Below, in pieces: positions 1,697-50,147 of a DNA stretch of 51,031 bases. The translations under genes were made by a program, and so were the position numbers. How positions within the stretch are numbered: position 1 is the stretch's first letter; every line of letters starts with the position of its first letter. The DNA comes from a virus. Taxonomy: Duplodnaviria; Caudoviricetes. A model generated the notes under the pieces. That model saw only the letters and a list, made by a program, of their open reading frames with translations, searched no databases and was not told the origin of the DNA. The DNA lies in the IMG/VR virus record IMGVR_UViG_3300018070_000166, positions 1 through 51,031 of that record. One strand, 5' to 3'.

Positions 1697-2707
1697 ATGG
1701 CAGTAGGACTTGACATAGGAACATGTTTTTTAGTAAGTGCTACAAAGGATATTAAGAATGAAAATGCATCCGTGGAAATTAAATCTATCCGGGATGCTTT
1801 CTTGGATGTTGAAGCAGATCAATCTATTTTGAATATGCTTAAAATGTCAAATGTTTCTTATGTACAGGAAAAAGATTTTATTTATATAGTAGGGGAACCC
1901 GCACTCAGTATTGCAAATCTTCTTAAGAAAGAAGCCCGGAGACCTCTAAATCAGGGGGTAATATCCTCAGGAGAACATGACGCTGAGAAGATGCTGGTAA
2001 TTCTTTTAAAGAATATCCTCAGTTCTCCTAAAGTTGAGAATGAGTCTGTGTTCTTTTCTGTCCCCGCGAAATCCATTGACAAAGATATGGATATTATTTA
2101 TCATGAAGCAATTTTTAAAAAGATTATAGAATCCTTTGGGTATAAAGCTACAGCGATGAATGAAGCGGCAGCAATTGTGTACGCGAATGCGAGTTCTGAG
2201 GGTTTTACTGCACTGGCAAGTAGTTTTGGTGCAGGAATGGTGAATACTGCTTTGGTTTTTCAGACCATGGTGGGGATGTCTTTTTCCGTTTCACGTAGTG
2301 GTGATTGGGTTGACCAATCAGCAGCAAAAGCTGTAGGTAGCACTGCTACACGTTTAATGTCGATAAAGGAAAAAGGAGTAAATCTTCTTGATCCTAATGA
2401 AGGAGACCCAAAGCAGCTTCGAGAAAGAGAGGCTATTGTTGTATATTATAAGAATCTTATACATTACGTGATAGATAGTATAAAAAGAGAATTCAAGAAG
2501 GATAATGGTAAGATTGAGCTTCCAGACCAGATCCCATGGATCATTAGTGGTGGTACTGCAAAAGCCAAGAATTTCCTTGAATTTTTCAAGCAGGAGTTTG
2601 AGAAAGAACGGAATAGTTTCCCTATTAATATCTCCGAAATTCGTATGGCAGCTGATCCCTTAGCAGATGTAGCAAAAGGGTTATTAATAGCTGCTATGAA
2701 CGACTAA
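1697..2707 (+). CDS. Actin-fold (ASKHA) ATPase, volactin-like
   Basis: Strong RBS AGGAGG. Motifs: phosphate-1 GLDIGT, connect-1 MNEAAA, phosphate-2 SFGAGMVN, SGDWVD, adenosine ISGGT, connect-2 DPLADVAKG. RRPLxxGVIS, FFSVPAxxID and IYHE match my recollection of the haloarchaeal volactin family. Confidence 0.85.
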   Translation: MAVGLDIGTCFLVSATKDIKNENASVEIKSIRDAFLDVEADQSILNMLKMSNVSYVQEKDFIYIVGEPALSIANLLKKEARRPLNQGVISSGEHDAEKMLVILLKNILSSPKVENESVFFSVPAKSIDKDMDIIYHEAIFKKIIESFGYKATAMNEAAAIVYANASSEGFTALASSFGAGMVNTALVFQTMVGMSFSVSRSGDWVDQSAAKAVGSTATRLMSIKEKGVNLLDPNEGDPKQLREREAIVVYYKNLIHYVIDSIKREFKKDNGKIELPDQIPWIISGGTAKAKNFLEFFKQEFEKERNSFPINISEIRMAADPLADVAKGLLIAAMND

Positions 2708-8923: not shown

Positions 8924-9631
8924 ATGGCAGCTAGAGATAGGGATACTTATGTCCATCGGATAGGGGTTACCCCCGAAACTGCTTCGGTCATAAGTTCTAA
9001 GAACAAGATTTATGCTATCCCAGCTGATGGTGACCAGACTACGGCTTTTCAGATCGGTGTTCTTGCTACATTTGACCCGGCTGAATCCCGTACTATCGAA
9101 CCTGTTCGTGGTATAGGTTTTGGTGACCATATTGCTGAGTTGGTTCCTGGTGCTACAGAGCCTATGACTCTTGGTATCACACGTACCGCCCAATATCTAT
9201 CAATGATCTTCCAGGTCTTCGGATATAAGGGTGGGGTAGATGGTATCGTGAGATCTCTTCGCCATCACAAATGGCCTTTTGATATCGTTCAGGAAGTGGT
9301 TATAAGCCGTCTTCCTGCGGTTATTACAGGAGGTAATGGTGCTCCGGGTATCACTGCCAAAGGCCTTAATGGTGAGTTAGATGCTATTCTAACATACTAT
9401 GAGGGTTGCTGGATTTCTGACTATGGCATCTCTTATGCAGCAGATGCCGCACTTGTACAAGAGAATGTTACAGTCAATGTGACTGACATTGTAGCAAGTA
9501 CAAGTAATGATTATATTGAACTTGGCGACTATTTCAATATGAATGCAGTATCGAGAATTGCGAATCCTGAGCATAACATATTTGTTGGGGCTCAGACTAC
9601 TGGTAAACCTAGTGGTGGAATAGCAGTTTAA
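8924..9631 (+). CDS. Tail tube protein
   Basis: Position after the sheath. SRTIEPVRGIG...ELVPG, WPFDI and TYYEGCWISDY...VQENVTV fit large-phage tube proteins. RBS TAAGGAG. Confidence 0.8.
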   Translation: MAARDRDTYVHRIGVTPETASVISSKNKIYAIPADGDQTTAFQIGVLATFDPAESRTIEPVRGIGFGDHIAELVPGATEPMTLGITRTAQYLSMIFQVFGYKGGVDGIVRSLRHHKWPFDIVQEVVISRLPAVITGGNGAPGITAKGLNGELDAILTYYEGCWISDYGISYAADAALVQENVTVNVTDIVASTSNDYIELGDYFNMNAVSRIANPEHNIFVGAQTTGKPSGGIAV

Positions 9632-9801: not shown

Positions 9802-10389
9802 ATGTCATTACTCGACGTCATTAAAGCTATGGAAGAAAAACTTACTTTTAAGAAAAAGGCAGTTATTAGTGGTATATCATTTGAAATTGCTCTTCTTAAC
9901 TATGAACAAGATCAGATGATGAACGCATATCCTGATGAGGGGGATGACCCTCTTTCATATTATGAGAAGACAAGATCAAAAGTATTATCTTACGCCATTG
10001 TCGGAATAGATGGTGAGAGTATCCCAACTATCGTAGAGGTAACAGAAGAAGATAAAGTAATAACAAAAGAAAAAGCTATCTATGTTAGAGATATCTTAAA
10101 AAAGATTCCTCCAAAAATTGTAGAAAAACTTTTTGAGATATACATTGATTTCAAGGATGAAACTGATAACCGCCTTAATGAAGAGGTAGAGTTTCAATGG
10201 TATAAGACTCCCGATCAAAGAAAAGCAGAAAGAGATAAGATAGAGAAAGAAAAAGAAGTAAAGAAGATGGAGGCGAAAGAGATAGTATCTGAAGTGCCTG
10301 AATCTACTGCCGATATTGCTTTGGAAGATGCCCCAATAGTTTTTAAAAAGATAGAAGAAAAAGATGATGACATAAGTCAGGTAGATTAA
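9802..10389 (+). CDS. Putative tail assembly chaperone 1
   Basis: Small acidic protein between tube and tape measure, with LSYAIVGIDG...VEKLFEIY. RBS TAAGGAG. Confidence 0.6.
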   Translation: MSLLDVIKAMEEKLTFKKKAVISGISFEIALLNYEQDQMMNAYPDEGDDPLSYYEKTRSKVLSYAIVGIDGESIPTIVEVTEEDKVITKEKAIYVRDILKKIPPKIVEKLFEIYIDFKDETDNRLNEEVEFQWYKTPDQRKAERDKIEKEKEVKKMEAKEIVSEVPESTADIALEDAPIVFKKIEEKDDDISQVD

Positions 10390-10390
10390 T

Positions 10391-10620
10391 ATCAATAGCC
10401 TATTACCCTAAAGGGTAGGAGTACTCCAAGTCCTTATTGATTAGTCTAAGTCTCTTTAACAGGGGCTACGTTATTTAGGTCAAGATACCTACAGATATAT
10501 AACCAAGTCTGTAGCTCTATCGTTGGTGATTAAACAGTTCTGATGGATAGGGGCAGTGTTGCCAGTGGAAAAAGCCTTTATAACATTGACGATGGTTACT
10601 TACTCCGAAAGGAGATGCAC
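10391..10620 (+). ncRNA. Omega RNA (HEARO-like) scaffold; the guide would be the flank immediately 5' (about 10371-10390)
   Basis: ATCAATA (10391) pairs with TATTGAT (10435). Characteristic blocks appear in order: TAGTCTAAG, CTACGTT, CTACAGA/TCTGTAG stem, TTAAACAG, CAGTG, AACATTGACGA, and terminal CTCC-GAAA-GGAG. Confidence 0.85.
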
Positions 10621-10623
10621 TTT

Positions 10624-11883
10624 ATGTTAGTGCATATTTTAAACAAAAACGGAAAACCATTAATGCCAACAACGTCACGGAAAGCGAGGTTGTTATTAAA
10701 AGAAGGAAAAGCTAAATGTATTAAAAGAATGCCTTTTACAATTCAATTATTATTCGGTAGCTATGGGTATAAGCAAGATATAATCTTAGGGATTGATGCT
10801 GGAAGTAAGACTATTGGGCTATCTGCTATCTCTGGAAAGAGAGAATTATTTAGCGCTGAAGTTGAATTAAGGACGGACATTGTTGATTTATTGTCAACCA
10901 GAAGACAGAACAGAAGAACAAGGAGAAATAGACTAAGATATAGAAAAGAAAGATTTTCAAACAGGGTGCGTAGCAAAAACAAAGGATGGTTAGCACCATC
11001 GATAGAAAACAAAATTAACACCCATTTGAAAATTGTCGAAAAGCTGCACGAGATATTACCAATTACAAAAGTTATTGTTGAGGTAGCAAGTTTTGATATT
11101 CAAAGGATTAAGAATCCAGAAATACATGGTGAAGGATATCAACAGGGAAATCAATTAGATTTTTGGAACGTACGAGAATATGTGCTATTTAGAGATGGTT
11201 ATAAGTGCCACGGTAAGAAAAGTTGCAAGAACAAAGTGCTAAATGTGCATCATATTGAGTCAAGGAAGATAGGGGGTAATAGTCAAAGCAACCTGATTAC
11301 TTTGTGTGAGGATTGTCACAAGGATTATCATTCAGGTAAATTGAAGCTCGATTTGAAACGCGGTAAATCCTTTAGAGATGCAGCATTCATGGGGATAATG
11401 CGGTGGGCTTTTTATAATAAATTAAGAGAGTGCTATTCAAAGGTTATACTAACATATGGCTATATTACAAAGAATACAAGAATAATAAATAATTTATCAA
11501 AAGAGCATAGGATAGATGCCCTGTGCATTACAGGAAATCCTGGGGTAAAAAGATTAGATGATTACTACTTTATTAAACAAGTAAGAAAGCACAATAGACA
11601 GATTCATAAAGCAAAGATAATAAAAGGCGGGAAGAAAAAGATAAATCAAGCACCTTATTTAGTAGGTGGTTTTAGATTGTTTGATAAGGTTAAATTTCAG
11701 GAAAAAGAATGCTTTATATTTGGAAGAAGAAATAGTGGGTATTTTGACCTGAGAACTTTAGATGGTGTCAGAGTAGCTTCTGGTGCTCCTATAAGGTTTT
11801 TAAAATTATTGAATAAAAGAAAGAGTTTATTATGGGAAAGGAGATGGCAGGGTGAGCATTACCGCACTATCCTAAAGGGGTAG
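10624..11883 (+). CDS. iscB: IscB RNA-guided endonuclease (419 aa)
   Basis: GKPLMPT (PLMP), RuvC-I LGIDAG, Arg-rich bridge helix RRQNRRTRRNR, RuvC-II VEVASFD, HNH VHHIE...NLITLCEDCH, RuvC-III HRIDA. Start moved from 10543 to ATG 10624, which follows GGAG. Confidence 0.95.
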   Translation: MLVHILNKNGKPLMPTTSRKARLLLKEGKAKCIKRMPFTIQLLFGSYGYKQDIILGIDAGSKTIGLSAISGKRELFSAEVELRTDIVDLLSTRRQNRRTRRNRLRYRKERFSNRVRSKNKGWLAPSIENKINTHLKIVEKLHEILPITKVIVEVASFDIQRIKNPEIHGEGYQQGNQLDFWNVREYVLFRDGYKCHGKKSCKNKVLNVHHIESRKIGGNSQSNLITLCEDCHKDYHSGKLKLDLKRGKSFRDAAFMGIMRWAFYNKLRECYSKVILTYGYITKNTRIINNLSKEHRIDALCITGNPGVKRLDDYYFIKQVRKHNRQIHKAKIIKGGKKKINQAPYLVGGFRLFDKVKFQEKECFIFGRRNSGYFDLRTLDGVRVASGAPIRFLKLLNKRKSLLWERRWQGEHYRTILKG

Positions 11884-11903
11884 TGGCTTCTTGCTAAAAA
11901 TCT

Positions 11904-12974
11904 ATGGAAGTTAAAGACGCCTATGAAAATATAGAGCGGATAATAGTTTTTGGTTTTTTATCTGTTAGAATTTCATTTAATGGTCATGATCTATTAATAA
12001 AAAGTATATCAGATAGAGAATATCAACAGATGCAGATGTTCTGTTCTACTAAAGATAGGAAGAAATTTAATTTTTTAAGTTTGGCTTTTTGTACTATATC
12101 AATAGATGGTATGAATCTATTAGAGGAAAGAGATAGAAATATTTGGAAGGTAGTAGAATTATTTAAAAAATCTTCAGCTTTATTTATGCTTCGAGTAATC
12201 GAAGCGATTAATGAGTTGAATCAGACTTATGCTGATTCCTTAGAATTTCTTGAGGGATTTAGTTATTCTCCTCGATCGAGATATCTGTGGTCTGTGATAG
12301 ACCCCTATAATAGATCTTCATTTACAGGTATGAGGGGTTTAGATCTTATAGGGATTAATAGTGTAATTGAGAATTGGGTTAGTATCAACAAAAAATTGGA
12401 TGATGAACACGAGTATGGTACTAATCTAAATAACACGCTTCTTATTGTAGGTGCTTCGAATTATAAGAGTGCAAAAATGCTCTCAAAGAATTATGAAAAG
12501 CATATACAGGAGCTTAAAGAGCTTAGAGATGACATTCTTAAATACGGGTATGATAGAAAAAGAGAAGAGGAAAATGAAAAGAAGAGGGAGACTTGGACAG
12601 CACCATTGTCATCTCGCGAAGATTTGGTAAAAGAGCTCTACCGTCAGATGGATGGTAAAAAAGATAAACATGATTTATATATTGACCAATGGATAGAGAA
12701 TCAGAAGAGTAAAGCGGAGGCTGTTAAGCAGAATATTATAGATAGACAACAGGCTTTCCGTAAAAAGATAGAGGAATCGGATCTTGATTTACTGGAACCG
12801 TCAAGACCAATATCTTTTCAAGAGCTTAATAAGATAATAGAACAAAATAAGATTAGACCAGAAAACCGTGCATATATGGCTGGTAAGGAAGATGCAGAGA
12901 TTAAAGATCGGGTGTATAAAAAAATAAGCACCAGGATTATCAGACCTGAGATGAAGGAAAAAGTAAATGGCTGA
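11904..12974 (+). CDS. Putative tail assembly chaperone 2
   Basis: Overlaps the tape-measure start. LAFCTISIDG echoes LSYAIVGIDG of the 9802 ORF. Confidence 0.5.
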   Translation: MEVKDAYENIERIIVFGFLSVRISFNGHDLLIKSISDREYQQMQMFCSTKDRKKFNFLSLAFCTISIDGMNLLEERDRNIWKVVELFKKSSALFMLRVIEAINELNQTYADSLEFLEGFSYSPRSRYLWSVIDPYNRSSFTGMRGLDLIGINSVIENWVSINKKLDDEHEYGTNLNNTLLIVGASNYKSAKMLSKNYEKHIQELKELRDDILKYGYDRKREEENEKKRETWTAPLSSREDLVKELYRQMDGKKDKHDLYIDQWIENQKSKAEAVKQNIIDRQQAFRKKIEESDLDLLEPSRPISFQELNKIIEQNKIRPENRAYMAGKEDAEIKDRVYKKISTRIIRPEMKEKVNG

Positions 12975-15900
12975 TCTAAAGAGTATAGATGCCGAGCTAA
13001 AGAAGTTGACAGAATTAAAGAATTCTTATGGTAATCTATTAGATGTTGAAAAGAATATTAACAACTCCCTTCTATATAGTGTGGGTATTAGAAAAAAGTA
13101 TACTGATGCATTGACTGCGGCTGCTTCAGCTCAAAAGGATTTGATAGCTAAAGAAGAGAGATTATCGGGGGAACTTAACAAATCCAGTAAAGCGCTGGCA
13201 TATTCTATAAAACAACACAAAATATATAAAGAGCAACGAAAAAAGCTTATTCAGGATCAGAAAAAATTAATTACATCAGGTAAAAAAGATACTGATGCAT
13301 ATAAAAATAGTAGAAAAGAATTAACCAAGTTAAGACAGTCTATTAGAGGAAATATTACATCTATAGAAGATTTTGAAAAGTCAATAAACGCTGTAGTTAA
13401 TCAAACAAAAACTTTAGTAGGTACTGGTAAGAAAATTAAAGAGACGTTTGATAAACTCAGTGAGTTAGATAGTAAGAAAATTAGTTCTGCTAAAGAACTT
13501 ATGGATGTTACAGAAGCACGTCTTGATATAATGAAGAAGCAGATTGATATTCAGGAAAAAGCTGGGACATTAGATGCAGATGAAGCTAAAGATTTAAAAG
13601 CTAAATTAGGTCAATATGAAGAGATGCAAAAGTTGGTAGGTGAGGGACTAAAGAGTAAAGTTTCAGAAGAATTAGCCCCTATGGTGGATGATCTAACTAA
13701 AAGCGCTACAGAGTTGACTAATAAAAAAAGATTCGGGGAAGATAAGCGTAGAGAAATTGGTCGTAGTCAATATGCCGCTCAATCTCGAAAAGGTGTAGGT
13801 TTGGGAGCAGAACAAGCAAGTAGTCTTAAAACACTCTTTAGTACTAAGTCAAGTTTTGGAGAGAGAATGGGTGCTGTTAAATCTCATGGTGCTGCTTCAA
13901 AAGAATTGGGGAAGCTTAATGAAGTCATGGATGTTACAGGTAAGAGTGCTCTTGGTGCTGGCAACATGATGAAGATGCTTGGTTCAGCATTAGGGTCATT
14001 AGGTAAACTGGGGTGGATAGGACTTATCATCTCCGCAGTTGTAGAAGTTGCTAAAGTTGTAGACAGGTTGGATAAGTTTCTAAAGGGATTTAATAAGACA
14101 TTTATACAACTTCAGGGTCCAACAGTAATGATGAAGGATGTTGGCAAGTCCATGAGTGATTTTTCTGACTCTATTTTCGATTTGAAGAGAAATCTGAAAT
14201 ATGGTTTAAAGTCCGAAGATATTATTGGTATGTTTAAGGGAATTTCAGAAGCAGGTATGAGTCTCCAGGGAGTTATGAAGAATGTAGCTGGTGGTTATCG
14301 TACCCTTGAAGAGGATGCTGCAAAAGTAATGATTGACTTTGGAGTCTCCATGGATGAAGCTGGTTCTATGCTTGGGGAACAGATGACTGATCTTAAATCT
14401 ACTGTTGATGAGGCTTCAAAAAGTTTTAAAGTTTTATCTTATGATGCCTCTATTGCAGGGATACAATCTCAAAAATTTTATCAAGCTACTTATGCTGCTG
14501 CGGAGGCTTTGAGTTTTTATGGTAAATTTATGGAAGCAGCATCTAACAATCTCAAAAATTTTCAAAAACAAGGTGCTATGGGTTTTAAGGATGCTCAGAA
14601 GCAAGCTCAAGAGATGACTAATTTATTTGGTACCATGAGTTCTAATCAGAAAATTGCTTTTATGGAAATGTCCGGTGGAGTAGAATCCTATAGAAAAGAT
14701 TTTCAAAAAATGGCTGCTGATTCATCCGCAGCTATAAAGACATCTCTTGAATCTTTGAGCACTAAAAGGGAACAATTAGCTAAGAGTAAAGCTGAGGGGG
14801 ATAAAAAATCAGCAGCGATATTGGAAAATGAAATATCTGCTGAGGAGGATCAGCTTGCTACTTTACAAAAAACGTATGCCATGGCTGATCACGCTGCTAA
14901 ATCTAATGCTATGAATATGGCTCTATATTTAGAGATGCTTTCTGATAAAGTTGGTTCTAAAATGAGTACATATTTTAAGGAGATGAAAAGTCATGGGGGT
15001 CTGGATGTTTTTAAAGATGATCGTGCTGCGATGGATCATATGGTGACTGTCTTAGGTGTATCAGAGGAATATGCTAAAAAGATGTTAGCTACTTTTCAAA
15101 CATCAAGAGGAAGTATTCTCCAAATGGGTAAAGATGTTCAGAAAATGATGGTTGATCTCCCTACTGAAAGTAAGAAGGGATTTAAAGAGAGATTTGCAAA
15201 AGTTATTAAAGATGGCATGACGGCAGACGGTAAGATGAATATGGCTGCTATAAGATCAGGTTTAGTAGATTACGCTAAAGTAAACAGTAAAGATATAGAC
15301 CAAGTTATGAACTATCTGGATAAGTTCCCTAATGCAGTACAAGAGGCAGTTGATAAGGGTGATGAATATATTGAAAAGAATGTTAATACACTCACTCTTA
15401 CAGAATTGAGTAATGTTTCCAAGATAAATGATGAGGGTATGGATGCTCAAAATAAGAGAATTGATGATATTGTAAAAAATACCAAGACTATTGGAGATTT
15501 TATTGGCATATCTAAGGAAAATGTTGAGTATCTTGCGTCTAGTAATGATTTACAAAAAGGTGCTGCTATGGCAGCGGTGGAGACTGCTATAACAGCAGGA
15601 TCTATTCTTAGCTGGCTACAAGCGAGTGGTAAAGAAAAAGAATTACTAAAAGATCCTGAAAAGGATATATACTATAAGGGTTTAAAAGAAATTGGTGCAG
15701 ATATAAAGGTTTTGGAGGCAGGTAAGAAAGAAACTACAGATAAAGGTAAAAAAGAAGAATATCAAAAAGAAATTGATAGATTAACCAAAAATGCTGCTCA
15801 TTTAGAAGACGTACTAAAAAAAGAACATGGGTCGAATATTGGAGGTCAACTTATAAGCTCAGCATCTGAAGCTGCGTTAGGTAAAGCAAAAAATATACTT

Positions 15901-16470
15901 GAGGAAAAAAGGGCTGCTGAGGAAGCTATAACACAAAAAAGGGAAGAAGCTGCATCATCTAAGGGTAAAGGTGATAATAAAAAAGCTGAAAAGTTGGCAA
16001 AAGAAGCTGATAAAATGCAGAGAGATTTTGAGTATCAAAAAGGTTATCTGCAATATTCTGAGAAAAAAGTAGAATTATCTTTAGACAAGAAAGCTGATGA
16101 GTCCTCCAAAAATACTGACTCGAATAAAATAGCGGATACTCCACCTATTATACCTATTAAAACTTATAAAGATTATAAAGCATCCTCTGGTGGGTATGCC
16201 TTACTAAGTAAAGGAGATGTGGTAGTAAATGCTCGTAGCATGTCTTCCGGTATCGGAGGAGATCTTGGGTCATTTGCAGGTACTGCCGCATCAGATATGA
16301 TGCGATCCCTTAGCCCTACAAGATCTCAAGGTGCTAATGCTCCAAGCATCCCTGTTAATATTAATATAGGATCAGTAAGCGGTAATCCGGAAGAATTTCT
16401 AAAAAGTATAAGACCTGCTATTGAGCAGGCTTTTGATAGAATGTACTTCGAAAAACAGAAAAGAAGATAG
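12967..16470 (+). CDS. Tail tape measure protein
   Basis: 1167 aa, helical and A/K/S/M-rich, with hydrophobic Gly-rich stretch LGSALGSLGKLGWIGLIISAVV and C-terminal VNINIGSVSG. Canonical position. Confidence 0.8.
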   Translation: MADLKSIDAELKKLTELKNSYGNLLDVEKNINNSLLYSVGIRKKYTDALTAAASAQKDLIAKEERLSGELNKSSKALAYSIKQHKIYKEQRKKLIQDQKKLITSGKKDTDAYKNSRKELTKLRQSIRGNITSIEDFEKSINAVVNQTKTLVGTGKKIKETFDKLSELDSKKISSAKELMDVTEARLDIMKKQIDIQEKAGTLDADEAKDLKAKLGQYEEMQKLVGEGLKSKVSEELAPMVDDLTKSATELTNKKRFGEDKRREIGRSQYAAQSRKGVGLGAEQASSLKTLFSTKSSFGERMGAVKSHGAASKELGKLNEVMDVTGKSALGAGNMMKMLGSALGSLGKLGWIGLIISAVVEVAKVVDRLDKFLKGFNKTFIQLQGPTVMMKDVGKSMSDFSDSIFDLKRNLKYGLKSEDIIGMFKGISEAGMSLQGVMKNVAGGYRTLEEDAAKVMIDFGVSMDEAGSMLGEQMTDLKSTVDEASKSFKVLSYDASIAGIQSQKFYQATYAAAEALSFYGKFMEAASNNLKNFQKQGAMGFKDAQKQAQEMTNLFGTMSSNQKIAFMEMSGGVESYRKDFQKMAADSSAAIKTSLESLSTKREQLAKSKAEGDKKSAAILENEISAEEDQLATLQKTYAMADHAAKSNAMNMALYLEMLSDKVGSKMSTYFKEMKSHGGLDVFKDDRAAMDHMVTVLGVSEEYAKKMLATFQTSRGSILQMGKDVQKMMVDLPTESKKGFKERFAKVIKDGMTADGKMNMAAIRSGLVDYAKVNSKDIDQVMNYLDKFPNAVQEAVDKGDEYIEKNVNTLTLTELSNVSKINDEGMDAQNKRIDDIVKNTKTIGDFIGISKENVEYLASSNDLQKGAAMAAVETAITAGSILSWLQASGKEKELLKDPEKDIYYKGLKEIGADIKVLEAGKKETTDKGKKEEYQKEIDRLTKNAAHLEDVLKKEHGSNIGGQLISSASEAALGKAKNILEEKRAAEEAITQKREEAASSKGKGDNKKAEKLAKEADKMQRDFEYQKGYLQYSEKKVELSLDKKADESSKNTDSNKIADTPPIIPIKTYKDYKASSGGYALLSKGDVVVNARSMSSGIGGDLGSFAGTAASDMMRSLSPTRSQGANAPSIPVNINIGSVSGNPEEFLKSIRPAIEQAFDRMYFEKQKRR

Positions 16471-23892: not shown

Positions 23893-26800
23893 ATGGGATC
23901 AGAAATTTTCAGTTTAAAGTCGCTTTATCTTGATGATACTGTAGTTCGTGGTGCGCGTGTCAGTACTAAAAATGCATCTTCTACAAGATCTATAGAAGTA
24001 AATCCTGGTGATGACCCTACTGTAAGGACAGGGGAAACTGGGATAAATAAAGAATATCTGATTCAATCCTCATTAGTAGGGAATGATCTTAATGGGTATG
24101 GAACATTTATCCAGAATAGTGATGTTATTAGAGGGTATACTGGTGCTCAGAATCTGTCCCATAGCGATAAAATAAAACTCGATAGTGAAAGAACATCCTA
24201 CACAGTAACAGGTATCAATGGTACTGATGTATACCTTATTGAGAAGTATACAAAAGAAAATAATTCTGATCCGGATGTTCTCTCAGGTATTTGCTCCATA
24301 GAGAAAGTATCTCTTGACAGTTTAAAGTATGAACGCTCGGATACTAATATTATTTATGATAAGGATAATAGTCAATGGGGTGTTACAGGTGTACTGATAC
24401 TTGATCCTACTATAGCTCCATCAGATAGTTTTGAATTTGATACAGGTATAACTCTTAAATTTCAAAGTGGTACATCAAGTAAGAAACCAGATATTGCTAC
24501 AGTGCTAAGTACCTCTAAGACTTTAGTATCAAATAATACCTCGCCAATTTTTGATGTATCCTTGAGTCCTATACCTTACCCACATAGCAGTCTACAGGTT
24601 TTCTTAGGTAAAAATGGAGAAGAACTTAAAAAAGCGGTAGAGGCTAAGGATTATTTTGTCAACTATACAAATAGCTCAGAAATTTTGTCTCCCATCCCAC
24701 CATATGAAGAGAGAAAAGTTGCCTATATAAAATTTCTGGATAGTATGGTTGATGGAGTTCAGGTTAAGAGTATCGATGCAACCTTTAATGGGAATATGAC
24801 TATAGATAAAGAAACTATAGAAGGGGATACTGTAGTAGTAAGACCTGTCCAGGATATCTTATCTACAGATGATTTTTCCATAAAGGTAGCTGGGTCTGAA
24901 AAGATAAAAAATACTGACTATGTATCTAATGATGGTGCTGGGATGCTTACCTTTGTTGAACATAGTAATCATGAGGCTTTGATAGATACCTTAACATACC
25001 CTAAAAAGCTCATATGGGATGGTATCAGTGTAATAATCGGAATCAAGGAAGAGGATGTAAATGACTTTAGTAATTTGGTTATTCCTGGAGTATCTGGGTT
25101 AAAAGGCATTGACTACACTGTTTATTATGAAGATACAGATTCCAATAATCTTCTTCGTGACATAGACTTTATTATCGATCCAGAGTCAGGAGCATTTGCT
25201 CTTAGTGCTCCTACTAATTCTGATGGTACTGTTTTAGTCTCTTACTTTGTAGAAGGGGATGATATAAAGGATGAAAAAGTTGAATTAAATACTCTGCGTC
25301 TTAATAGCTATCCATTGGTAGTTAGTTCTCTGGTATTGACAAAGAAGTACAATAAGATAGGTAATTCAGGTGGTCAAGTAACCTTGACAAGAGTACTTGT
25401 TGAAGGTATAGATTTTAACGTATCCTATATCACTGGGTATATTGAGTTGCTACCTTCAGATGAGATCACTGTTGAGTTAAGGACATCATATACTCCCATG
25501 GCACAGATAAACTGTATTGCTCGAAGTATAGATAAGAGCATGAATTATACATATACCATAATTGACGACGTGTTTACCTTCTCTCAGGATGACATTGGAA
25601 GCAAGAGATTAATATTTAAAGTTAATAACCCTGCGGTATCTATTCCTAAAAAAATATTGTTTGATAGCGATAAAACAACATCTAATTATAATTTTTTAGG
25701 AAGTATAACTCCTGAGAATATTCTGCGTATCGGGATAAAGGGGACAGACAAAACTTTTATTGTTAATGGCTCAAAATATGATGACATTAAGAAAATAATA
25801 ACTCTTGATTCTTCTGTTAATGCCCTCGCTCCATTGAATAGGGATATTGTTGTTGGATCGTATACATATGAATCTGACATCCTCCCATATGCCCCAGTTT
25901 TACTTATCTCAACAGTTATAAATGCAGGGGATGATTCATTCTTGATCGAGGGTTATGATAAAACAGATTCTCTTAAAGCTGGTACTATACTTCAGGTAGA
26001 AAATAGAGATCCACAATCGATCAATTATTATATGCTAAGAAATGTATCGTATAAGAATCAGGTTACCAAGGTGGACATCTATGGGACTTTTCCTGAAACA
26101 GCTATTGACCCAGTTTTTTCAATATTTGATGATCAAATTACCTGGCAGGCTATGTCTGAGGATGTCACAGTAGATACTACAGTACCAGTAGACTCAGGTT
26201 TTATAATCTTGGATGGTGGCCCTCTTTTCTTAAATACAAATATAAAAAAAGAAGGATTACTGTTAGTTAATAATCAAGAGATATACACAATAACTTTGAT
26301 AACCACTCAAGGTTCAAGAACTACCATAGGTATTTATCCTAATCTTAGATCCTCTCTGACTTCCGATATAAGATTTTCTATTCTTCCCGTATATATTGCA
26401 GGTATCACTACCATACCTGCAAGGAAGCTTATTCTCAATGATGTTGAACAGCCCGCATTTACTATATGGTATGATTCACCTAAAGGATATGAGGGAAGTG
26501 CTAAAGTACTTTTCGTAAGAGATACAATAGTGATTGATGAATATGTATCGGGTGTCAAAAATCCGGAATCCTATAGGTTTTTAATCAAGGATTACTCTGA
26601 CATTTACACTTTAGCCAAAGCTATCCAGGCTATTAAATCTACATTTAGGATAAATGTCCCGTATATGGCTGTTCCGGAGTATAATCCATTTACCATAGTT
26701 CATGCAGATAAAGAAGACTATTATCTTGGTAGGGGTATTTGGGGTCCCAGCACTTTGATTCCATTTGAAAATGAAGAGTATACAAATCTTCCCTATACAT

Positions 26801-29800
26801 TTAATATTACTCCGGATCTCTTTAAGTATACTCTCTTAGAGTTATTCAGTGGCAAAAATGAGTTTACAATAAAAGATGTTGATCTTTCTACTTACTTCAT
26901 CTCAGGTACGATAGTTTCATTTGTTAATAAGATAAGTGGTAGGATATTTTTCAGTAAAATATTGGGTGTTGAATACTTATCCAAAAAAGGTACGTTGGTA
27001 ACATTATCAAGTACCATACCTGAGAATATGGTAGCACCCTATAAATATGCATGTACTTCTCCAGAATGGATAAATATAAATAACACTATGATTGGGGTAG
27101 ACCACGGCACCTCACAAATAACATTCCAGGGTAAGCTTATAGATAACGTCAGAGAAGGGACTATTCTGAGTATAGGCAATAATCATATTTATCAGGTTCA
27201 GAAAGTGACTCAGAATGTAGATAATTTTGAAATATCCCTAAACTCATATATTGACCCAGAAGTAAAAGTTCAGACTTATTTTGATTATATAAAAATCAGT
27301 AGTGTGCCTATAGTTCTTACTACACCAGGACCTCAACCCATGGTTCAATATACTTATATTACACCATATAAACATACGGGGTATGCCGCAGTAAAAATTA
27401 GTATTGATAAAATAAACTTTAAAGAAGTAATAGACAATCTCAATATTAAAGAAACTTCCCTAAAATACTCAGACTATGATAATTTTGGGTTGCTTTTTGA
27501 GGGCATTAAGAATATTGAATCATATGTGCCGGGGAATAGACCTTTTAATGTTCTGTTAAACAATTCATATAATGATGTCCTTAGTGATGCTTTTGATAAG
27601 TATGCTCTAAAAAGCACTATGGATCAATACACTAACTTGCCAAGTTATATACCTATAGCAGTTGGTGCCTTTGACATTAGATACACTGTTCCTTCTGGGT
27701 ATGCTGGTACATTTAGTGTGAAAGTTACATCAGAATATCTATCAATAAAAGAGCATACATTTGATCTCTATGGGAATGAGTTAGAAAAAGAAACTTCTAT
27801 TCAGTATATAAACACAAAGGATATGAAAGATTTAGTCACCTCTATCATACCTAAGATAACCTCTGTTATATCAAGTACTCTTTTTCCTTTCACAACTATT
27901 CTTAAAAATCAGGATACGTTTGGTTTAGGTGGTTGGGGATACACACATCTCACAACATTGATTGGGGGATATCTATCAGGAAATCAAACTATATATGCTA
28001 CTGTTGATGTTAGATCCTTCATAGCTATAGGAAATCTTAATGAGAGAAAGTTAGAAGTAACTAAAGAGTATACTATCAATAATGGGGTAGTTGAGCTCGT
28101 TACTCCAGTAGCACCATTAGATCGATATACCCTTAGCTATATGGGTCTCGATAATCTGTATGAGAATGAGGGTGATTCAATAACTTGTTCGTGCCGATTT
28201 ATTACTGCACTTCCGATAGGATATCGTCTTGATGTTTATTTAGAGTATCAGAATATAGATCAGTTTTATATCCAGAAGCTTACTGAAAGAAAATTCTCTG
28301 AGATAGTTACAGTACCTCAGATAGAACAGATTGTAGAACAAAAAGCTTTTGTTGGTGGTCAAGGTAATGACAGTGGGACAACAAATAACTCTACTCCCAA
28401 TTATGAGGGTGGTGTAGCGGATATTAACTACCTCCTGCAAGATGAATATATCAAAAAGCAACTTTACTTGAGATTCTTCAAGTGGTACAAACAGAGACTT
28501 AGAGGTTTAAGTGCCGAGATGCAGCTTGGTCTTGGGTTTAAATTCGGGCATAGTAATGCAGTGGGTGAGGTAGATGGTTATTATAGCCTGGAGGATCAAT
28601 ATGTAGAAACTGAGGATTACACACTTACTAAAGACGGAGATATAGCTCAGATAAATAATGGTTTCTCAAAATATTTTCCGATAGGGTATAGTGATCAAGC
28701 CCCGGATTATTACCATAGATTCGGAAAAGAATATCTATCCTTCAATGAAGTTTATTGCTGTAATGTAACATACAAGGATGATAAGAATAAGGTAGTGACT
28801 GTTGGTATAATTAAATCAGATCGACCTTACTGGAATAGGACACCAGATCTTATCTTTATGGTATGGAAAGATGAATACATAGTTAAAAATAAAAATCTGG
28901 TGGATGGTTATATCGTAGATGTCCCCGTAGAGGATAGATCTTTTGATCCGAGTAATTACACCTTTTTACGAGTAATAGATGTAGGGGATAAAGTTAAGGT
29001 GGAAGGATTTAAGAATTCATATACTATTTCGAGTATAGAAACTCCTGTCGGTAAGACATATGAGTATATTCTTATTAGTAAACCTTTTACGGATAAAGGA
29101 ATAAAGACTTATAATATAATTGATAAAAATGTCCAAATATCCGAGAACCCTAATGAGTACAAGTTATTATCCCTTGATACGTTTGTAGAAGCTCTTTCTC
29201 CGGATGGGTACAGACTCTTGATTACCCGCCAGGATAAAGAAGATTTTCCAATGTCTGATGACTATGGAAGTTTAGGGGCTACAGCTTATGGGGATGCGGT
29301 AGAAAGACTCCCAAATAATACTCGTAGGATAAAGAAGCCTTTTGGGGCAGCATTATTAAAGCTGTTTTTTCCCTTTATTAAAGAATCTACAAAGAACTTT
29401 AAAGTGATGGTGAAGAGGGATTCTGAAGCAATCTCCTGGGAAACTCTTGGTACGGTAGATCTGTCAAAGTTAACATTTAAAGAAGAACGTAATATCGATG
29501 ACGTTTTGGATGCTCTAAGATATGATTTTACAGACAAGTACACAATACCTATGCCACCACCGGCACCCCCAATAATTATATATGATATAAAAGAAGATGC
29601 TAATAAGGGGTTCTTCAGATATTTTTATTTGTCTCTTGAGAATATCTACGATGCCGAGAGTAAAGACGGCTACTATCAAAGTATAGTAATTAGAGCTAAG
29701 GATAGAAATTGGAGCTTTAAATTTATAGATGGTGGAGAAGAGAATATCATAGGAGATTATGGGTACAATGAAGAAAAAGTATATGAAAATTTTTATGATC

Positions 29801-32800
29801 CTGAAAATATCTATAAAAGATTGCTTCTTGAAAAACAAGCTTGGCAGACCGAGGAGCTTATTGTAAGAGATTTATATGACTATAATGATAAGATTGCCCG
29901 GGCATTTGACAATGGTGATCTTAATCGTAAAAACAGTAAATACCAGTATTATTTGGCAATGCCTGATGGAGGTACAGTTCAGGGTGTATCAGATATTTTA
30001 AGGACACGGATACCTACATATGAGAAACAGTTAAGATTCTTAATAGATACTGCAGGACCAGTCTTTAGAACACTCTATCCGGATCTCGTCCATGCTGAGG
30101 ATAGTGCTTCTCCGGAGATAGCTACTACGTACAAGCAGACTCTTTTTGCTTGGAATTTGTATAATGCCTCTTATGGTAAAATGAATTTTTATAATAATCT
30201 CAATGAGAATAATAATTACACCTGGAAGAATAGCTATATAAGATGGGTCATGAGTATTGAGCGGGGAATACTATACCAGGGGTTATTAAAGCAAATGTCT
30301 GATAATAACTCAGGAGTTATAACGGTAGGATTAGTAGAAGTACCTACTATTGACATACTCTTGGTATCCCAATTGGTATATACCGTAGTAAATCCAATGC
30401 TTACGGTATCTTCTACATATGATGGGAAATATATTAGGATTAGTTTTGATATAAGTAGAAAAGATGCTCCGGGTCAAATTACCCCAGGAATAGTCTGGAT
30501 AATATACCTATATGATAAAATAGATATAGGAGGCATTCCCACCGTATCGTACAAGGATATATCAAAAGTATGCTCAGAGATATCAGAGTATAAATATGAA
30601 GGGGTCAAATTATTTGCAGCAAGTAACATCTTTACACATACTGAAAATGATGTAGTATCAAAGACTGTTCTTGTAGATAATATGGTGATTGATCCTATTA
30701 AAGGTTCCCAACTTGTATCTACTAATGTGGCAGATCATAGGGCATCTGATCCAAGAGTACTTTTTCTTAATAAGAACATAGAGGATAGGGTTTATACTCA
30801 TGAGATAAGAGAGCTCCCTGGGGTTAATGTCTCATATCTTGGTAATTATTATTTGCTGAAATATGGTATACCGGGGTTGTCTATTATTCTAAACTATCAA
30901 TATGATAGAAGTAACTTCAGATATGGTATATTTTATGATAACACTGGGGAAAAAGTACTAACCTTAGCATATGATACTAATGGAGAAACAGTATATAATA
31001 CATTTCAGTTATATGTTACAGGCAGTACATCAAATGTGTATAAGACTATCTCAGAATTATCCTATGAATTAAATAACTCATATTTCATTACCAGTACAGT
31101 TCCTACGGCTAATAGCTCCAGGACTTGTGATTCTTTTATAATCACAACAGACTATGTTTCTGCTATTGAACTCCTCGCCGTTCCATATATCTCGACTAAT
31201 AGCGTATATAGCTCTGTGGATAAAGAAACAGATCAGTTTTATTACCGGGTATATACCGATAGTGCAAAGATAAGAAAATTGGATATTGTCTTTTATAACA
31301 TTATACTTGATGGAAAAAAGATATACAAGGATACCACTATATCTGATACATTTACTTTTTCATTCCAGAAAATAGATGGCTCTTTTAAGACTTTGTCTGA
31401 GATATGTCAAGAACTTAATAACTTTACATATATAGGGGAAAAACTCTTATCAGCTTCCTCTGTGTATGAGGCTGATCCTAAGAGTGGACTGACATCTGCA
31501 TATGTTATAGCTGATAATATACTTACACCTGTAGGTTATGATTGGGTAACTACTTTGTATGTAGATACCTACGTTGAAGCGATAAGTGGGAAGGATTCTA
31601 ATAGCCGGACAGTATCAAGTATAAAGAATGCTGTATTTTCTTTTCCAATGTATACAGCTAATGGTAATCCGAACAAAGCAGCAATAGAAGATATACCTGT
31701 ATCAGGTAAATGGGAAGTAGTTAATAGCTCAGATATCTTAGAAGTAAGTTGCATAGATGGCTTTGAATGGTCACTATCCTTTTCAGATTTTAATTCAGGG
31801 GACTACAAAAGCTATATGACGCCACAAGATATTCTGGATTTAATTAACAGTAATAAATCCCTTACGGAAGATCAGTATAATCAAATAAAGACTGTAGAGG
31901 ATCGTCCTGCTGTGGGAGTACTCAAAGAATTAGTACTTACTAAGATTAATGGATCAGAAAAGAATATTGCGAGATTCAATCTTAGAAAATACGGTACTAT
32001 CAATGAACTTGTAGAGGCTATAGTACTTACAAGATTTAATGCTGCGGGAGAAATTGATATAAATGGTATTAGAGCTTTTTTTACTGCCACACTAATAGGA
32101 GATCCTGCTGTAGAGGGTAAGTATAGGAGTTCAGAACTTAAAACTGAATACACTCCTATTATTAAATCCTTCAATGTTACGATGAATGACGGGTCTATAG
32201 TATATAAATATAATCAACTTATTGGTTGGCAGCTCATGAGTACCACGCTTAAAGGCAATTTGAAACAGCGCCTAAAGATGATGGAAGAAAGATACAGTTA
32301 TGGGGAAACTCATAAGTTTGTTCTTGGGAATCCAGAGACAGCCTATAATGACACATTGAACAATAACCCCCAAGGATTTAGAAGGGATATTTTAGCATTT
32401 GATATCTATAGCTGGGATTACAATGCACAGTATGAGATTAAGGATAATTGGCTATATTTTAAGAGTGACTCTGTAGATTTTATTAGAGCATCAGATCTTG
32501 GTCAACCTGACAAAGCATTAGGTTATGGGATACCCCTATCTGGGTCTGGGCATACTATGGCTCCAGACAGAGAAAGTATAGCTGATCTTGTTAATAGAAT
32601 AAATAGCAATAATTTTATCAATAAGTGGTTTTACGCAAATCTCAAGTTTACTCGTGATGATAAGAATAATCCTGGATATTTTGAGTATAATTATCTTCCT
32701 AATCTTTATGCGCAGATACCCCGGTCAATTATCGATAATATTATGTTGAAGGATGATAATGTCCTTCAGATTAAACCAGCTTCTGGGTACAATTTCACAG

Positions 32801-34101
32801 CATCTAACATCACTATAGATGATGGTGCGGATACCTTGAATGTTTCTTGTGACTGGAATTTAAATTATAAGTACGAACGAACCTTCTTTTTTAATGATAT
32901 TAGTAACAGGACGATTGATGGGTTAACTAGTAGCATAAATGCTGCTTTGGCTCCAGAGATAGCGACTTCACTTATAGAGGCTGTATTAGATCCAGATGGT
33001 CATGGCTTGTCGGGATCTATGAGTAAGAATCTTTTACCATCATACTTTGATAGACTAATAAGTACAACAGGTACTAATCTTACGATGTACGTAAGTGTAC
33101 ATAGGTATACCGCTATAAAAATTAAGATACGAAATGTATCTGGTAGTAATTATACTATTAATAAGGCCACCTATGTTATTCCTCAAACTCATGATAGAAT
33201 CACAATTAAGTGCGATATAGCATATCATAGCACGTATACATTATCTTCGTATAATCTTGCAGGTGTTAATTTGGGATTTCTGTCTGACTTTTTGAGATCT
33301 ATAAAACCTTATCCTGATAATATATTTACCCCGTTATTTGATAGTAATGTGCTTTCTAATAGCTATAGGAATTACACATCAGATAGACTTTTGGATATCT
33401 CAAGTTCGATAGCTATAGGGGGAACTAATCTGTCCGCAAGATTACATGATATAGTGGCTTTTAAAGTTCTAAATATGACTCCCAAAGGAACAATTAATGT
33501 CTCGGATAGCGGTATAGAGGTGATCACCTTCAAAACTTATACAAAAGCTTTGTCTGATAGTACTGATCTTTTCGCATTTATTGATGCTATCAAAGGAAAT
33601 TATTCCACAGGATTTTTATCTTGTGATGTTCTTCCATTAAAGATAACATCAGTGGATACAGGGAAACTAAATCCATCAGAATATAATCTTACATCGGGGA
33701 ATACCCCCGCACATGTTTATTTTGGTATTTTGGGAGATATTAAGTTTATACAGATATCTGACCATAATCTTCATATCCAATATAATTATATTAAGGAACG
33801 TCTCGGGATGCCTTGGAAGGATTCTCAAGGTAATATAACCTATGATTATTATACTCCTGAGAATTTTAATGAGAATAATCCCACTGCAATAGATTTAAGC
33901 AATTTTCTGGGATATTTACGTACAGGGCGTTATAATCAGATTAAGAATTCAGTTATTAATGAAGCTACGGTATCTAATAAGTATCTCTGGCTTTATATGA
34001 AATTTCACAAGGAGTTCGGATGCGATCAACGAGCGAACATGCTGAAGAATGCAATAGAGAAGGGAAACTTGGACATCGAGACTCTGGGGCAGATGTTATA
34101 G
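23893..34101 (+). CDS. Giant (3402 aa) modular virion protein, probably peripheral baseplate or fibre
   Basis: Uninterrupted ORF within the baseplate cluster. Repeated D[YF]xxxxxxGxxx[LF] modules and repeated [TS]IxELxxxIN-like modules. Confidence 0.75.
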   Translation: MGSEIFSLKSLYLDDTVVRGARVSTKNASSTRSIEVNPGDDPTVRTGETGINKEYLIQSSLVGNDLNGYGTFIQNSDVIRGYTGAQNLSHSDKIKLDSERTSYTVTGINGTDVYLIEKYTKENNSDPDVLSGICSIEKVSLDSLKYERSDTNIIYDKDNSQWGVTGVLILDPTIAPSDSFEFDTGITLKFQSGTSSKKPDIATVLSTSKTLVSNNTSPIFDVSLSPIPYPHSSLQVFLGKNGEELKKAVEAKDYFVNYTNSSEILSPIPPYEERKVAYIKFLDSMVDGVQVKSIDATFNGNMTIDKETIEGDTVVVRPVQDILSTDDFSIKVAGSEKIKNTDYVSNDGAGMLTFVEHSNHEALIDTLTYPKKLIWDGISVIIGIKEEDVNDFSNLVIPGVSGLKGIDYTVYYEDTDSNNLLRDIDFIIDPESGAFALSAPTNSDGTVLVSYFVEGDDIKDEKVELNTLRLNSYPLVVSSLVLTKKYNKIGNSGGQVTLTRVLVEGIDFNVSYITGYIELLPSDEITVELRTSYTPMAQINCIARSIDKSMNYTYTIIDDVFTFSQDDIGSKRLIFKVNNPAVSIPKKILFDSDKTTSNYNFLGSITPENILRIGIKGTDKTFIVNGSKYDDIKKIITLDSSVNALAPLNRDIVVGSYTYESDILPYAPVLLISTVINAGDDSFLIEGYDKTDSLKAGTILQVENRDPQSINYYMLRNVSYKNQVTKVDIYGTFPETAIDPVFSIFDDQITWQAMSEDVTVDTTVPVDSGFIILDGGPLFLNTNIKKEGLLLVNNQEIYTITLITTQGSRTTIGIYPNLRSSLTSDIRFSILPVYIAGITTIPARKLILNDVEQPAFTIWYDSPKGYEGSAKVLFVRDTIVIDEYVSGVKNPESYRFLIKDYSDIYTLAKAIQAIKSTFRINVPYMAVPEYNPFTIVHADKEDYYLGRGIWGPSTLIPFENEEYTNLPYTFNITPDLFKYTLLELFSGKNEFTIKDVDLSTYFISGTIVSFVNKISGRIFFSKILGVEYLSKKGTLVTLSSTIPENMVAPYKYACTSPEWININNTMIGVDHGTSQITFQGKLIDNVREGTILSIGNNHIYQVQKVTQNVDNFEISLNSYIDPEVKVQTYFDYIKISSVPIVLTTPGPQPMVQYTYITPYKHTGYAAVKISIDKINFKEVIDNLNIKETSLKYSDYDNFGLLFEGIKNIESYVPGNRPFNVLLNNSYNDVLSDAFDKYALKSTMDQYTNLPSYIPIAVGAFDIRYTVPSGYAGTFSVKVTSEYLSIKEHTFDLYGNELEKETSIQYINTKDMKDLVTSIIPKITSVISSTLFPFTTILKNQDTFGLGGWGYTHLTTLIGGYLSGNQTIYATVDVRSFIAIGNLNERKLEVTKEYTINNGVVELVTPVAPLDRYTLSYMGLDNLYENEGDSITCSCRFITALPIGYRLDVYLEYQNIDQFYIQKLTERKFSEIVTVPQIEQIVEQKAFVGGQGNDSGTTNNSTPNYEGGVADINYLLQDEYIKKQLYLRFFKWYKQRLRGLSAEMQLGLGFKFGHSNAVGEVDGYYSLEDQYVETEDYTLTKDGDIAQINNGFSKYFPIGYSDQAPDYYHRFGKEYLSFNEVYCCNVTYKDDKNKVVTVGIIKSDRPYWNRTPDLIFMVWKDEYIVKNKNLVDGYIVDVPVEDRSFDPSNYTFLRVIDVGDKVKVEGFKNSYTISSIETPVGKTYEYILISKPFTDKGIKTYNIIDKNVQISENPNEYKLLSLDTFVEALSPDGYRLLITRQDKEDFPMSDDYGSLGATAYGDAVERLPNNTRRIKKPFGAALLKLFFPFIKESTKNFKVMVKRDSEAISWETLGTVDLSKLTFKEERNIDDVLDALRYDFTDKYTIPMPPPAPPIIIYDIKEDANKGFFRYFYLSLENIYDAESKDGYYQSIVIRAKDRNWSFKFIDGGEENIIGDYGYNEEKVYENFYDPENIYKRLLLEKQAWQTEELIVRDLYDYNDKIARAFDNGDLNRKNSKYQYYLAMPDGGTVQGVSDILRTRIPTYEKQLRFLIDTAGPVFRTLYPDLVHAEDSASPEIATTYKQTLFAWNLYNASYGKMNFYNNLNENNNYTWKNSYIRWVMSIERGILYQGLLKQMSDNNSGVITVGLVEVPTIDILLVSQLVYTVVNPMLTVSSTYDGKYIRISFDISRKDAPGQITPGIVWIIYLYDKIDIGGIPTVSYKDISKVCSEISEYKYEGVKLFAASNIFTHTENDVVSKTVLVDNMVIDPIKGSQLVSTNVADHRASDPRVLFLNKNIEDRVYTHEIRELPGVNVSYLGNYYLLKYGIPGLSIILNYQYDRSNFRYGIFYDNTGEKVLTLAYDTNGETVYNTFQLYVTGSTSNVYKTISELSYELNNSYFITSTVPTANSSRTCDSFIITTDYVSAIELLAVPYISTNSVYSSVDKETDQFYYRVYTDSAKIRKLDIVFYNIILDGKKIYKDTTISDTFTFSFQKIDGSFKTLSEICQELNNFTYIGEKLLSASSVYEADPKSGLTSAYVIADNILTPVGYDWVTTLYVDTYVEAISGKDSNSRTVSSIKNAVFSFPMYTANGNPNKAAIEDIPVSGKWEVVNSSDILEVSCIDGFEWSLSFSDFNSGDYKSYMTPQDILDLINSNKSLTEDQYNQIKTVEDRPAVGVLKELVLTKINGSEKNIARFNLRKYGTINELVEAIVLTRFNAAGEIDINGIRAFFTATLIGDPAVEGKYRSSELKTEYTPIIKSFNVTMNDGSIVYKYNQLIGWQLMSTTLKGNLKQRLKMMEERYSYGETHKFVLGNPETAYNDTLNNNPQGFRRDILAFDIYSWDYNAQYEIKDNWLYFKSDSVDFIRASDLGQPDKALGYGIPLSGSGHTMAPDRESIADLVNRINSNNFINKWFYANLKFTRDDKNNPGYFEYNYLPNLYAQIPRSIIDNIMLKDDNVLQIKPASGYNFTASNITIDDGADTLNVSCDWNLNYKYERTFFFNDISNRTIDGLTSSINAALAPEIATSLIEAVLDPDGHGLSGSMSKNLLPSYFDRLISTTGTNLTMYVSVHRYTAIKIKIRNVSGSNYTINKATYVIPQTHDRITIKCDIAYHSTYTLSSYNLAGVNLGFLSDFLRSIKPYPDNIFTPLFDSNVLSNSYRNYTSDRLLDISSSIAIGGTNLSARLHDIVAFKVLNMTPKGTINVSDSGIEVITFKTYTKALSDSTDLFAFIDAIKGNYSTGFLSCDVLPLKITSVDTGKLNPSEYNLTSGNTPAHVYFGILGDIKFIQISDHNLHIQYNYIKERLGMPWKDSQGNITYDYYTPENFNENNPTAIDLSNFLGYLRTGRYNQIKNSVINEATVSNKYLWLYMKFHKEFGCDQRANMLKNAIEKGNLDIETLGQML

Positions 34102-41534: not shown

Positions 41535-41535
41535 T

Positions 41536-47058: not shown

Positions 47059-47063
47059 ATATT

Positions 47064-47720: not shown

Positions 47721-47793
47721 AGAATATTAAACTGGAGACTCTTTATGAAGCTATGTTTAATTTTTCATAACTTTGAAAGAACGGTCATAAGAC

Positions 47794-48150
47794 ATGAGTA
47801 CTGTTGATTTCATAGGTTCTCCAAGAAAAGGTACAATATCATTAACTGTGCATTTTACTGATAAATCCCTGGGGCCTATTGAAAGTTGGCTATGGGACTT
47901 TGGGGATGGGCACTTTTCCTCAGAAAGAAATCCAACATATTATTATTCTCATCCAGGTATATATACAGTATCCTTAACTGTATCGAACATAGGTAACCAA
48001 GATACAAAGACTATGGATAGTTATATACAAGTCCTTAGTAGCGCTACATATGATATAGCTCCAGGGTTGCAGCAAAAAGCATATTTATGGGGTACAGGTA
48101 TTGTTAATAAAAGGAATGTAGGAATAGAGATAAAAAAAGTGACAAGATAA
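47794..48150 (+). CDS. Single PKD-domain protein
   Basis: VHFTDKS...SWLWDFGDG...NPTYYYSHPGIYTVSLTV. Confidence 0.85.
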   Translation: MSTVDFIGSPRKGTISLTVHFTDKSLGPIESWLWDFGDGHFSSERNPTYYYSHPGIYTVSLTVSNIGNQDTKTMDSYIQVLSSATYDIAPGLQQKAYLWGTGIVNKRNVGIEIKKVTR

Positions 48151-48177
48151 AAAATTTAAGATTGGTGTAATTTTTTA

Positions 48178-50097: not shown

Positions 50098-50147
50098 AGA
50101 ATATTCATAGGGCACTTTTATGGGTAATAAGAACGGACGGGTAAAAG

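Follow-up and report, generated by a model that had tools for sequence, protein, structure and literature searches.

How an RNA-guided nuclease element came to sit between two tail genes of a phage, and what keeps it there, is the question that this locus raises. The window, by which we mean the whole virus record analyzed here (G000, a fragment of 51,031 nucleotides, or 51 kb, rated 11% complete), carries an iscB gene and its omega RNA in an element that separates one open reading frame (ORF), ORF 9802, from the next, ORF 11904. We lean toward the explanation that the IscB element persists as an RNA-guided homing parasite, inserted scarlessly where the start codon of a tail-chaperone gene lies in a jumbo phage, with cleavage and homing being predicted activities. 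The anatomy and boundaries of the element, and occupied and empty alleles of its site in near-identical phages, were observed directly.

Where the element begins and ends can be read from natural empty sites. The stop codon of ORF 9802 (TAA, 10387-10389) is followed by a single T at 10390 and then by the omega RNA scaffold, HEARO, and the next gene opens with the ATG at 11904. Six of 17 listed sequencing runs (X2 to X7) were compared as assembled contigs, so depths are not allele shares. Contigs of X3 and X4 join position 10389 to 11903, omitting 1,513 bases with no letters in between. Four placements of the boundary, from 10390-11902 to 10393-11905, are equivalent and leave the same empty site, and we prefer 10391-11903 because relatives begin with [GA]T[CT]AA and end before an ATG. 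Insertion was scarless, as the flanks are joined directly in the empty alleles, with neither target duplication nor terminal inverted repeats. The original prediction had proposed these boundaries and a scarless empty site from the window's letters, and the X3 and X4 contigs match that site exactly. It also pointed to a look-alike of the junction elsewhere in the window, and indeed TAATATG is present at 41532-41538, but this is weak evidence because the same 7-mer occurs six times on the plus strand. We dropped the look-alike, and the real empty alleles replace it.

Element-free alleles, which were looked for in related contigs, were found even inside the same samples. When compared with the window, contigs of X2 and X5 had the occupied form only, although in contig data failure to see an allele does not show absence. 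With the relative L010 as the reference, empty contigs were found in X3, X4, X6, and X7, and both X3 and X6 also had contigs that run into the omega RNA and are occupied. Depths were 10.8 (empty) and 8.9 (occupied) in X3 and 10.4 (empty) and 4.9 (occupied) in X6. Both alleles co-occur in two runs from different studies, in near-identical phages. None of 14 orthologous loci carried iscB, and where their junction was visible, the gap from stop to start was 0 to 11 bases and was 1 base in the two closest. Moreover, iscB was absent from the five related phage records searched; a HEARO search of those five says nothing, as its controls were also silent.

What the element encodes is intact. HEARO matched model positions 1 to 211 at 131.2 bits against a cut-off of 83 and was the sole Rfam match in the window. 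Its start coincides with the insertion boundary, and the structured RNA lies directly upstream of the iscB ORF; folding of the omega RNA (z score of -0.77) was uninformative beside the Rfam match. IscB scored 352.9 bits against the NCBIfam guided_IscB profile (cut-off of 175) and aligned with solved IscB structures at an E value of 3e-45, and its ATG is preceded by AAGGAG. The PLMP motif lies at residues 12 to 15, the RuvC residues D58, E153, H295, and D298 and the HNH residues H209/H210, N223, and H232 are all present, and the catalytic positions are invariant across seven aligned IscBs. Thus, the nuclease is intact, as first read from its motifs, with every catalytic residue in place and a profile score far over the cut-off. 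Both ends of the element carry subterminal hairpins, as expected of the IS200/IS605 group, the second of them near 10400-10419 (bottom-strand z score of -2.3 at the right end and -1.2 at the left end). A promoter scan gave 10 sites versus 10.2 expected and was uninformative. Judged by these features, the element belongs with the non-autonomous (ISC2) IscB-omega RNA elements.

How the element would find a target follows from the layout of known IscB elements, in which the guide is drawn from the flank (Meers et al.). The original prediction took the guide from the 3' end of the upstream chaperone gene, and the known layout agrees. The effective part of the guide is probably its last 13 to 16 nucleotides, with a basis in PMC13180657 and PMC9640706, and no other target with at most four mismatches over the 14 nucleotides before ATG[AG] was found in the window. 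We suggest that the element was put there a single time by a host TnpA, at an ATGA start-codon site. Its position between genes would come from a target-adjacent motif (TAM) that contains ATG and from selection against gene-breaking insertions, and its own ends would have decayed after insertion. Operon read-through from the upstream gene would load the omega RNA with a guide that is the end of the chaperone gene and matches the empty site. IscB would then cleave empty sites that match this guide, in sister genomes or in those of co-infecting phages, and repair of the cut empty copies by recombination would copy the element across.

Whether the empty alleles are good targets is complex. The original prediction named the element-free allele as the target, and such alleles exist, but the ones seen mismatch the guide at position 9. 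All four empty alleles depart from the window's letters at 10368 (position 23 from the TAM), 10371 (position 20), and 10382 (position 9). Position 10382 is T in the window and C in the empty alleles, and the C is derived because the closest outgroups, L009 and L010, have T. Mismatches at guide positions 1 to 14 abolished cleavage by OgeuIscB (PMC9640706). Thus, the position-9 change may shield the empty alleles from cutting, the empty haplotype is likely cut poorly, and poor cutting would help explain why both alleles persist. The empty haplotype resembles a resistant survivor, but the case is thin.

The main rival explanation, which we regard as possible but doubtful, is that the element is a passive passenger: a single clonal insertion on one haplotype, with an IscB that is intact merely because it is young and with lineages that coexist without drive. 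In the stretches read, occupied alleles agree with one another in their flanking letters and empty alleles agree on a different set (10339-10382 in X3 and X6; 10239-10314 in X3), X2 carries the element letter for letter as in the window and X3 departs from it at only a few sites, and changes in the target are not in significant excess (2 seen versus 0.41 expected in 20 nucleotides; p of 0.065). Against a passenger, an intact ORF and RNA lie beside ends that appear decayed, a pattern that fits selection on the nuclease, and IscB and TnpB elements described in the literature skew inheritance in their own favor.

The nonsignificant excess is also one of several points that weigh against homing. 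Upstream of the site, the four empty alleles share a single haplotype and therefore count once, and the Ala at the codon of 10382 is also found in distant relatives. The position-9 mismatch would be an rU:dG wobble, which may be tolerated. There is no convincing co-conversion footprint: one phased site is discordant (9864) and conflicts with a two-lineage history, and the other footprint signals rest on unphased contig depths. The window flank is ATGG, and under a strict ATGA TAM, the precisely excised joint would escape cutting. Moreover, the records searched for TnpA (see below) are 8 to 45% complete. Finally, cutting and homing are activities predicted from sequence. A recombination footprint was also sought in the X3 depths but not used, as a depth of 18.7 could mean either both alleles or a collapsed bubble.

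Which TAM the IscB reads bears on whether the site can be cut. The original prediction put the TAM at about ATGG, after the window's own letters, but flanks across the clade point elsewhere. Our survey covered 96 loci with an iscB match, 91 of which reach the C terminus and 43 of which are non-redundant and fit the left-end pattern; the loci left out were redundant or lacked that pattern, including L002, whose end may be ATGG on visual inspection. The flank after the element is ATGA in 41 of the 43. One of the two ATGG rows, L065, is true, and the other, L054, looks like a mis-hit of the pattern. The third letter of the left-end DNA guide is C in L065, where the ATGA elements and the window element have T. 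The count is not circular, because near-identical elements at different sites (L033-L035; L023 and L029-L031) are alike through ATGA and only then diverge. Three empty alleles have ATGA, each reading ATGAA, and one has ATGG (X3). The window's G at 11907 looks derived, because A is found there in three of the four empty alleles and in the outgroups L009, L010, and L017, and ATGA is a likelier cognate TAM than ATGG. ATGG may be accepted too. OgeuIscB reads purines at TAM positions 3 and 4 (PMC9640706), whereas single TAM changes ablated cleavage by GstIscB and TnpB (Meers et al., bioRxiv 2023.03.14.532601).

Other observations concern the same flank. A TAM shift read from the protein was rejected, as the GRRNSGYFD hairpin is common to ATGA-flanked relatives such as L098 and L105 and gives no sign of a shift; close relatives do differ further downstream. 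A scan with the left-end pattern returned three loci, none with iscB. At the fourth TAM base, the empty allele of X3 shares the G of the window in an otherwise X4-like background, which could reflect a recurrent change, patch conversion, or an old polymorphism. Many loci among L060-L100 have viral IscBs that are about 62% identical to the window IscB and, just past the iscB stop, end directly at ATGA without the left-end hairpin, and this hairpin-less group sits at several different downstream flanks. Two different IscB elements (L001 and L038) lie on one 149-kb viral contig, both flanked by ATGAA at long ORFs.

The ends suggest how mobile the element still is. The DNA guide at the scaffold end may have decayed, and the element may have become immobile with its nuclease still intact, because the CTTG motif is lost from the right end. 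TACT stands there versus CTTG in 29 of 36 G-starting relatives, and nine of 10 A-starting relatives also lack CTTG. The left-end DNA guide, CTTC, is unique among 44, and most relatives have TTTC, TATC, or TCTC. We take the CTTG end motif to guide excision by IS608 pairing rules, and the pairing register is likewise assumed. The original prediction proposed searches for tnpA and for sibling copies, and both came back empty in the 51-kb fragment. Y1 TnpA (PF01797) was found neither in G000 nor in the five related records, with the control positive in six of 14 genomes, and the element, single copy in G000, encodes no Y1 TnpA and is thus not of the autonomous ISC2Y kind. About 1.5% of iscB genes have TnpA nearby (Meers et al., bioRxiv 2023.03.14.532601).

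Alternatively, the element might be an active transposon limited to restorative homing, with a host TnpA removing it, IscB putting it back from sister copies of the same replicating phage, and the empty alleles being excision products. This would match the published IscB life cycle (Meers et al.), the left-end hairpin is present, and the X3 empty allele has ATGG as the window does. We nonetheless consider it improbable: the empty alleles are not fresh excisions from the window because both of their flanks are about 2% diverged (in X4, 43 of 2,088 bases differ), the right end lacks CTTG, and the ATGA of the clade is gone from the left flank. Homing without transposition might instead be an RNA-guided gene drive that needs no transposase, observed partway through its sweep of a wild jumbo-phage population. 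The ends would then be nonfunctional, spread would come only from cutting co-infecting empty phages, and the surviving empty haplotype would be drive resistant by way of the position-9 seed change and, in one sample, an ATGA-to-ATGG change in the TAM. We find this version rather unlikely.

Why the element lies so neatly between two genes seems explained by its clade. Start-codon landing, as judged from flanks, is a habit of the clade because the TAM contains ATG. The flanking ATG opens at least 50 codons in 26 of 43 relatives versus 115 of 507 background ATGA sites taken from flanking DNA (23%; p of 1e-7), and the special precision first implied for this insertion is shared with those 26. Two of the 34 rows that had a 5' match (L047 and L070) combine such a start with a stop no more than 4 bases before it, a rough count in which a few of the 34 matches are spurious. 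IscB elements show a bias toward positions downstream of co-oriented genes, since transcription of the guide has to enter from beyond the element (Meers et al., bioRxiv 2023.03.14.532601).

The insertion was also claimed to break neither gene. Both reading frames are indeed unbroken, but insertion removes the weak Shine-Dalgarno-like site of gene 11904 and adds an upstream hairpin. Shine-Dalgarno pairing is +1.8 kcal/mol in the occupied form versus -4.5 kcal/mol at the empty junction, as computed with an anti-Shine-Dalgarno motif. The left-end hairpin scores as terminator-like, with a weak T tract. Despite the unbroken frames, insertion probably costs the downstream gene something.

The surroundings indicate what kind of phage carries the element. 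By resemblance, the window is the tail region of a jumbo myophage, because homologs of the flanking genes were found on contigs of up to 373 kb and sheath, baseplate, and fibre matches (Pfam and PHROG) lie in the window. Both genes around the element are tail assembly chaperone-like, again by resemblance, and the chaperone label first given to the flanking gene holds up. Residues 1 to 140 of ORF 9802, which has 31 homologs, fall near the Phage_TAC_5 cluster (score of 0.92; 171 shared features); Pfam and PHROG searches with this ORF gave no match, and a PDB sequence search with its alignment gave none under an E value of 0.7. The model of ORF 11904 (predicted local distance difference test, pLDDT, of 78.9) had Bacillus phage G gp182 as its top fold match (E value of 2.9e-6), followed by several tail assembly chaperones, and the HK97 chaperone was weak (E value of 0.12). 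A scan of viral contigs with ORF 11904 as a single protein found nothing, but an alignment-based scan did find homologs. A broken G-GT frameshift between the two genes was rejected: they are not a frameshift pair because, in nine of nine relatives examined as well as in the window with the element taken out, the downstream frame is closed 0 to 5 codons before its start. The gene at 8924 is 84 to 98% identical across relatives. GenBank phages gave only three partial matches, at 68%, and named close relatives of the IscB are mostly clostridial. Coordinates are collected in Table 1.

Table 1. Features of the element and its neighbors in the window, with the basis for each assignment
Feature	Positions	Strand	Basis
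Probable tail tube gene	8924..9631	+	Place after sheath gene (PF17482, phrog_2839); no family match of its own
Tail assembly chaperone-like gene, 195 amino acids; last codons are predicted guide source	9802..10389	+	ESM Atlas
Predicted omega RNA guide, flank derived	10371..10390	+	Layout per Meers et al.
Non-autonomous IS200/IS605-type (ISC2) element, 1,513 bp, scarless, 3-nucleotide boundary ambiguity	10391..11903	+	Joints in X3 and X4
Omega RNA scaffold HEARO, also element right end; begins ATCAA	10391..10603	+	RF02033
iscB, 419 amino acids: PLMP, split RuvC, bridge helix, HNH, TAM-interacting domain	10624..11883	+	NF040563, PF14239, PF01844
Left-end hairpin (11865-11885) and DNA guide (CTTC on the plus strand)	11865..11903	+	Fold and comparison with relatives
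TAM position, start codon of next gene; ATGGA in window	11904..11908	+	Flank comparison
Second tail assembly chaperone-like gene, 356 amino acids; probable tape measure gene (12967-16470) follows	11904..12974	+	Structure model and fold match

Other genes of the window were noted in passing. Upstream of the sheath gene, a 336-amino-acid ORF (1697-2707, plus strand) matches the actin homolog Volactin (Pfam PF25216; 212 bits). The Volactin ORF is also found in three of the five related phage records and in one of them, G002, is interrupted by a long in-frame insertion, possibly an intein (710-amino-acid frame). The tail region also holds an ORF of 3,402 amino acids (23893-34101, plus strand) without a Pfam or PHROG match, and five consecutive ORFs with PKD domains (45949-50474, plus strand), one also with collagen repeats, are possibly fibre or adhesin parts. 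In L014, the sheath gene match shifts frame at about 496-498, either by frameshift or by assembly error.

How the element compares with known systems limits what is new about it. Donor-joint cleavage by IscB, viral IscBs, and TnpB plasmid drive are already known, and the anatomy alone is ordinary, because self-preserving cleavage by IscB is known and start-codon landing is routine in the clade. The element is like ISGst5, with GstIscB, of Geobacillus stearothermophilus (bioRxiv 2023.03.14.532601), which is non-autonomous, IS605 type, and has a right-end omega RNA scaffold, a 5' flank-derived guide, a co-oriented upstream gene, and the catalytic numbering D58/H209/H210 (a likeness by number). 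GstIscB cleaves the donor joint of its own element and loses activity on changes at D58/H209/H210 (bioRxiv 2023.03.14.532601). Its TAM, TTCAT, is ATGAA on the iscB strand, whereas the flank of the phage element is ATGGA. Unlike ISGst5, the phage element resides in a jumbo phage, is single copy in the fragment, appears to have lost its right-end DNA guide, and co-occurs with natural empty alleles. It also resembles the HEARO/IscB systems of viral contigs (PMC9755519), which pair HEARO RNA with an HNH/RuvC ORF and rarely have TnpA nearby. More than 16% of HEARO/IscB fragments were called viral there, and the accessible part of that account does not treat insertion-site alleles or phage homing.

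Drive by a related nuclease has a precedent on plasmids. The insertion site of an IS605 TnpB element reprograms the guide, and element-free copies of the replicon are cut (bioRxiv 2025.02.20.638934), a process that a 2026 review calls "transposon non-restorative homing" and for which TnpA is not needed (PMC13565253). Unlike here, that drive was shown on plasmids, and the main text of bioRxiv 2025.02.20.638934 has 0 mentions of phage or IscB. The same review lists OMEGA homing into co-infecting phages as theoretical. The free-standing homing endonucleases SegF, SegB, and Mob of T-even phages are similar in that a nuclease gene lies between conserved phage genes and spreads in co-infection (PMC13565253). 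They bind DNA by protein, however, and often at a distance from the insertion, whereas IscB would use an RNA guide and cut its own insertion site. No study of IscB homing between phages was found in the literature, as judged on titles and the openings of abstracts in a search that left subscription papers mostly outside. TAM tables in paper supplements may cover this clade.

TnpB gives plasmids a defense of this sort (bioRxiv 2025.02.20.638934), and IscB might similarly have been domesticated as a weapon, kept because cutting element-free co-infecting relatives helps the whole phage genome by marker exclusion. In favor, the targeted site is part of a conserved tail operon, and the two alleles are found in the same samples. 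We consider domestication very improbable, however, as some phages of one population have the element and others do not, all 14 orthologous loci and the five related records lack it, outgroups differ in the target (a TGA stop and another spacer base), and the locus holds nothing beyond an ordinary element.

What is new here is a natural test bed, in which occupied and empty alleles of one phage species are found in the same sediment samples and the letters of target and TAM are known. Their polymorphism makes phage-to-phage homing by IscB, and resistance to it, testable. Ultimately, it could show whether resistance alleles arise in wild phages as they do in engineered drives.

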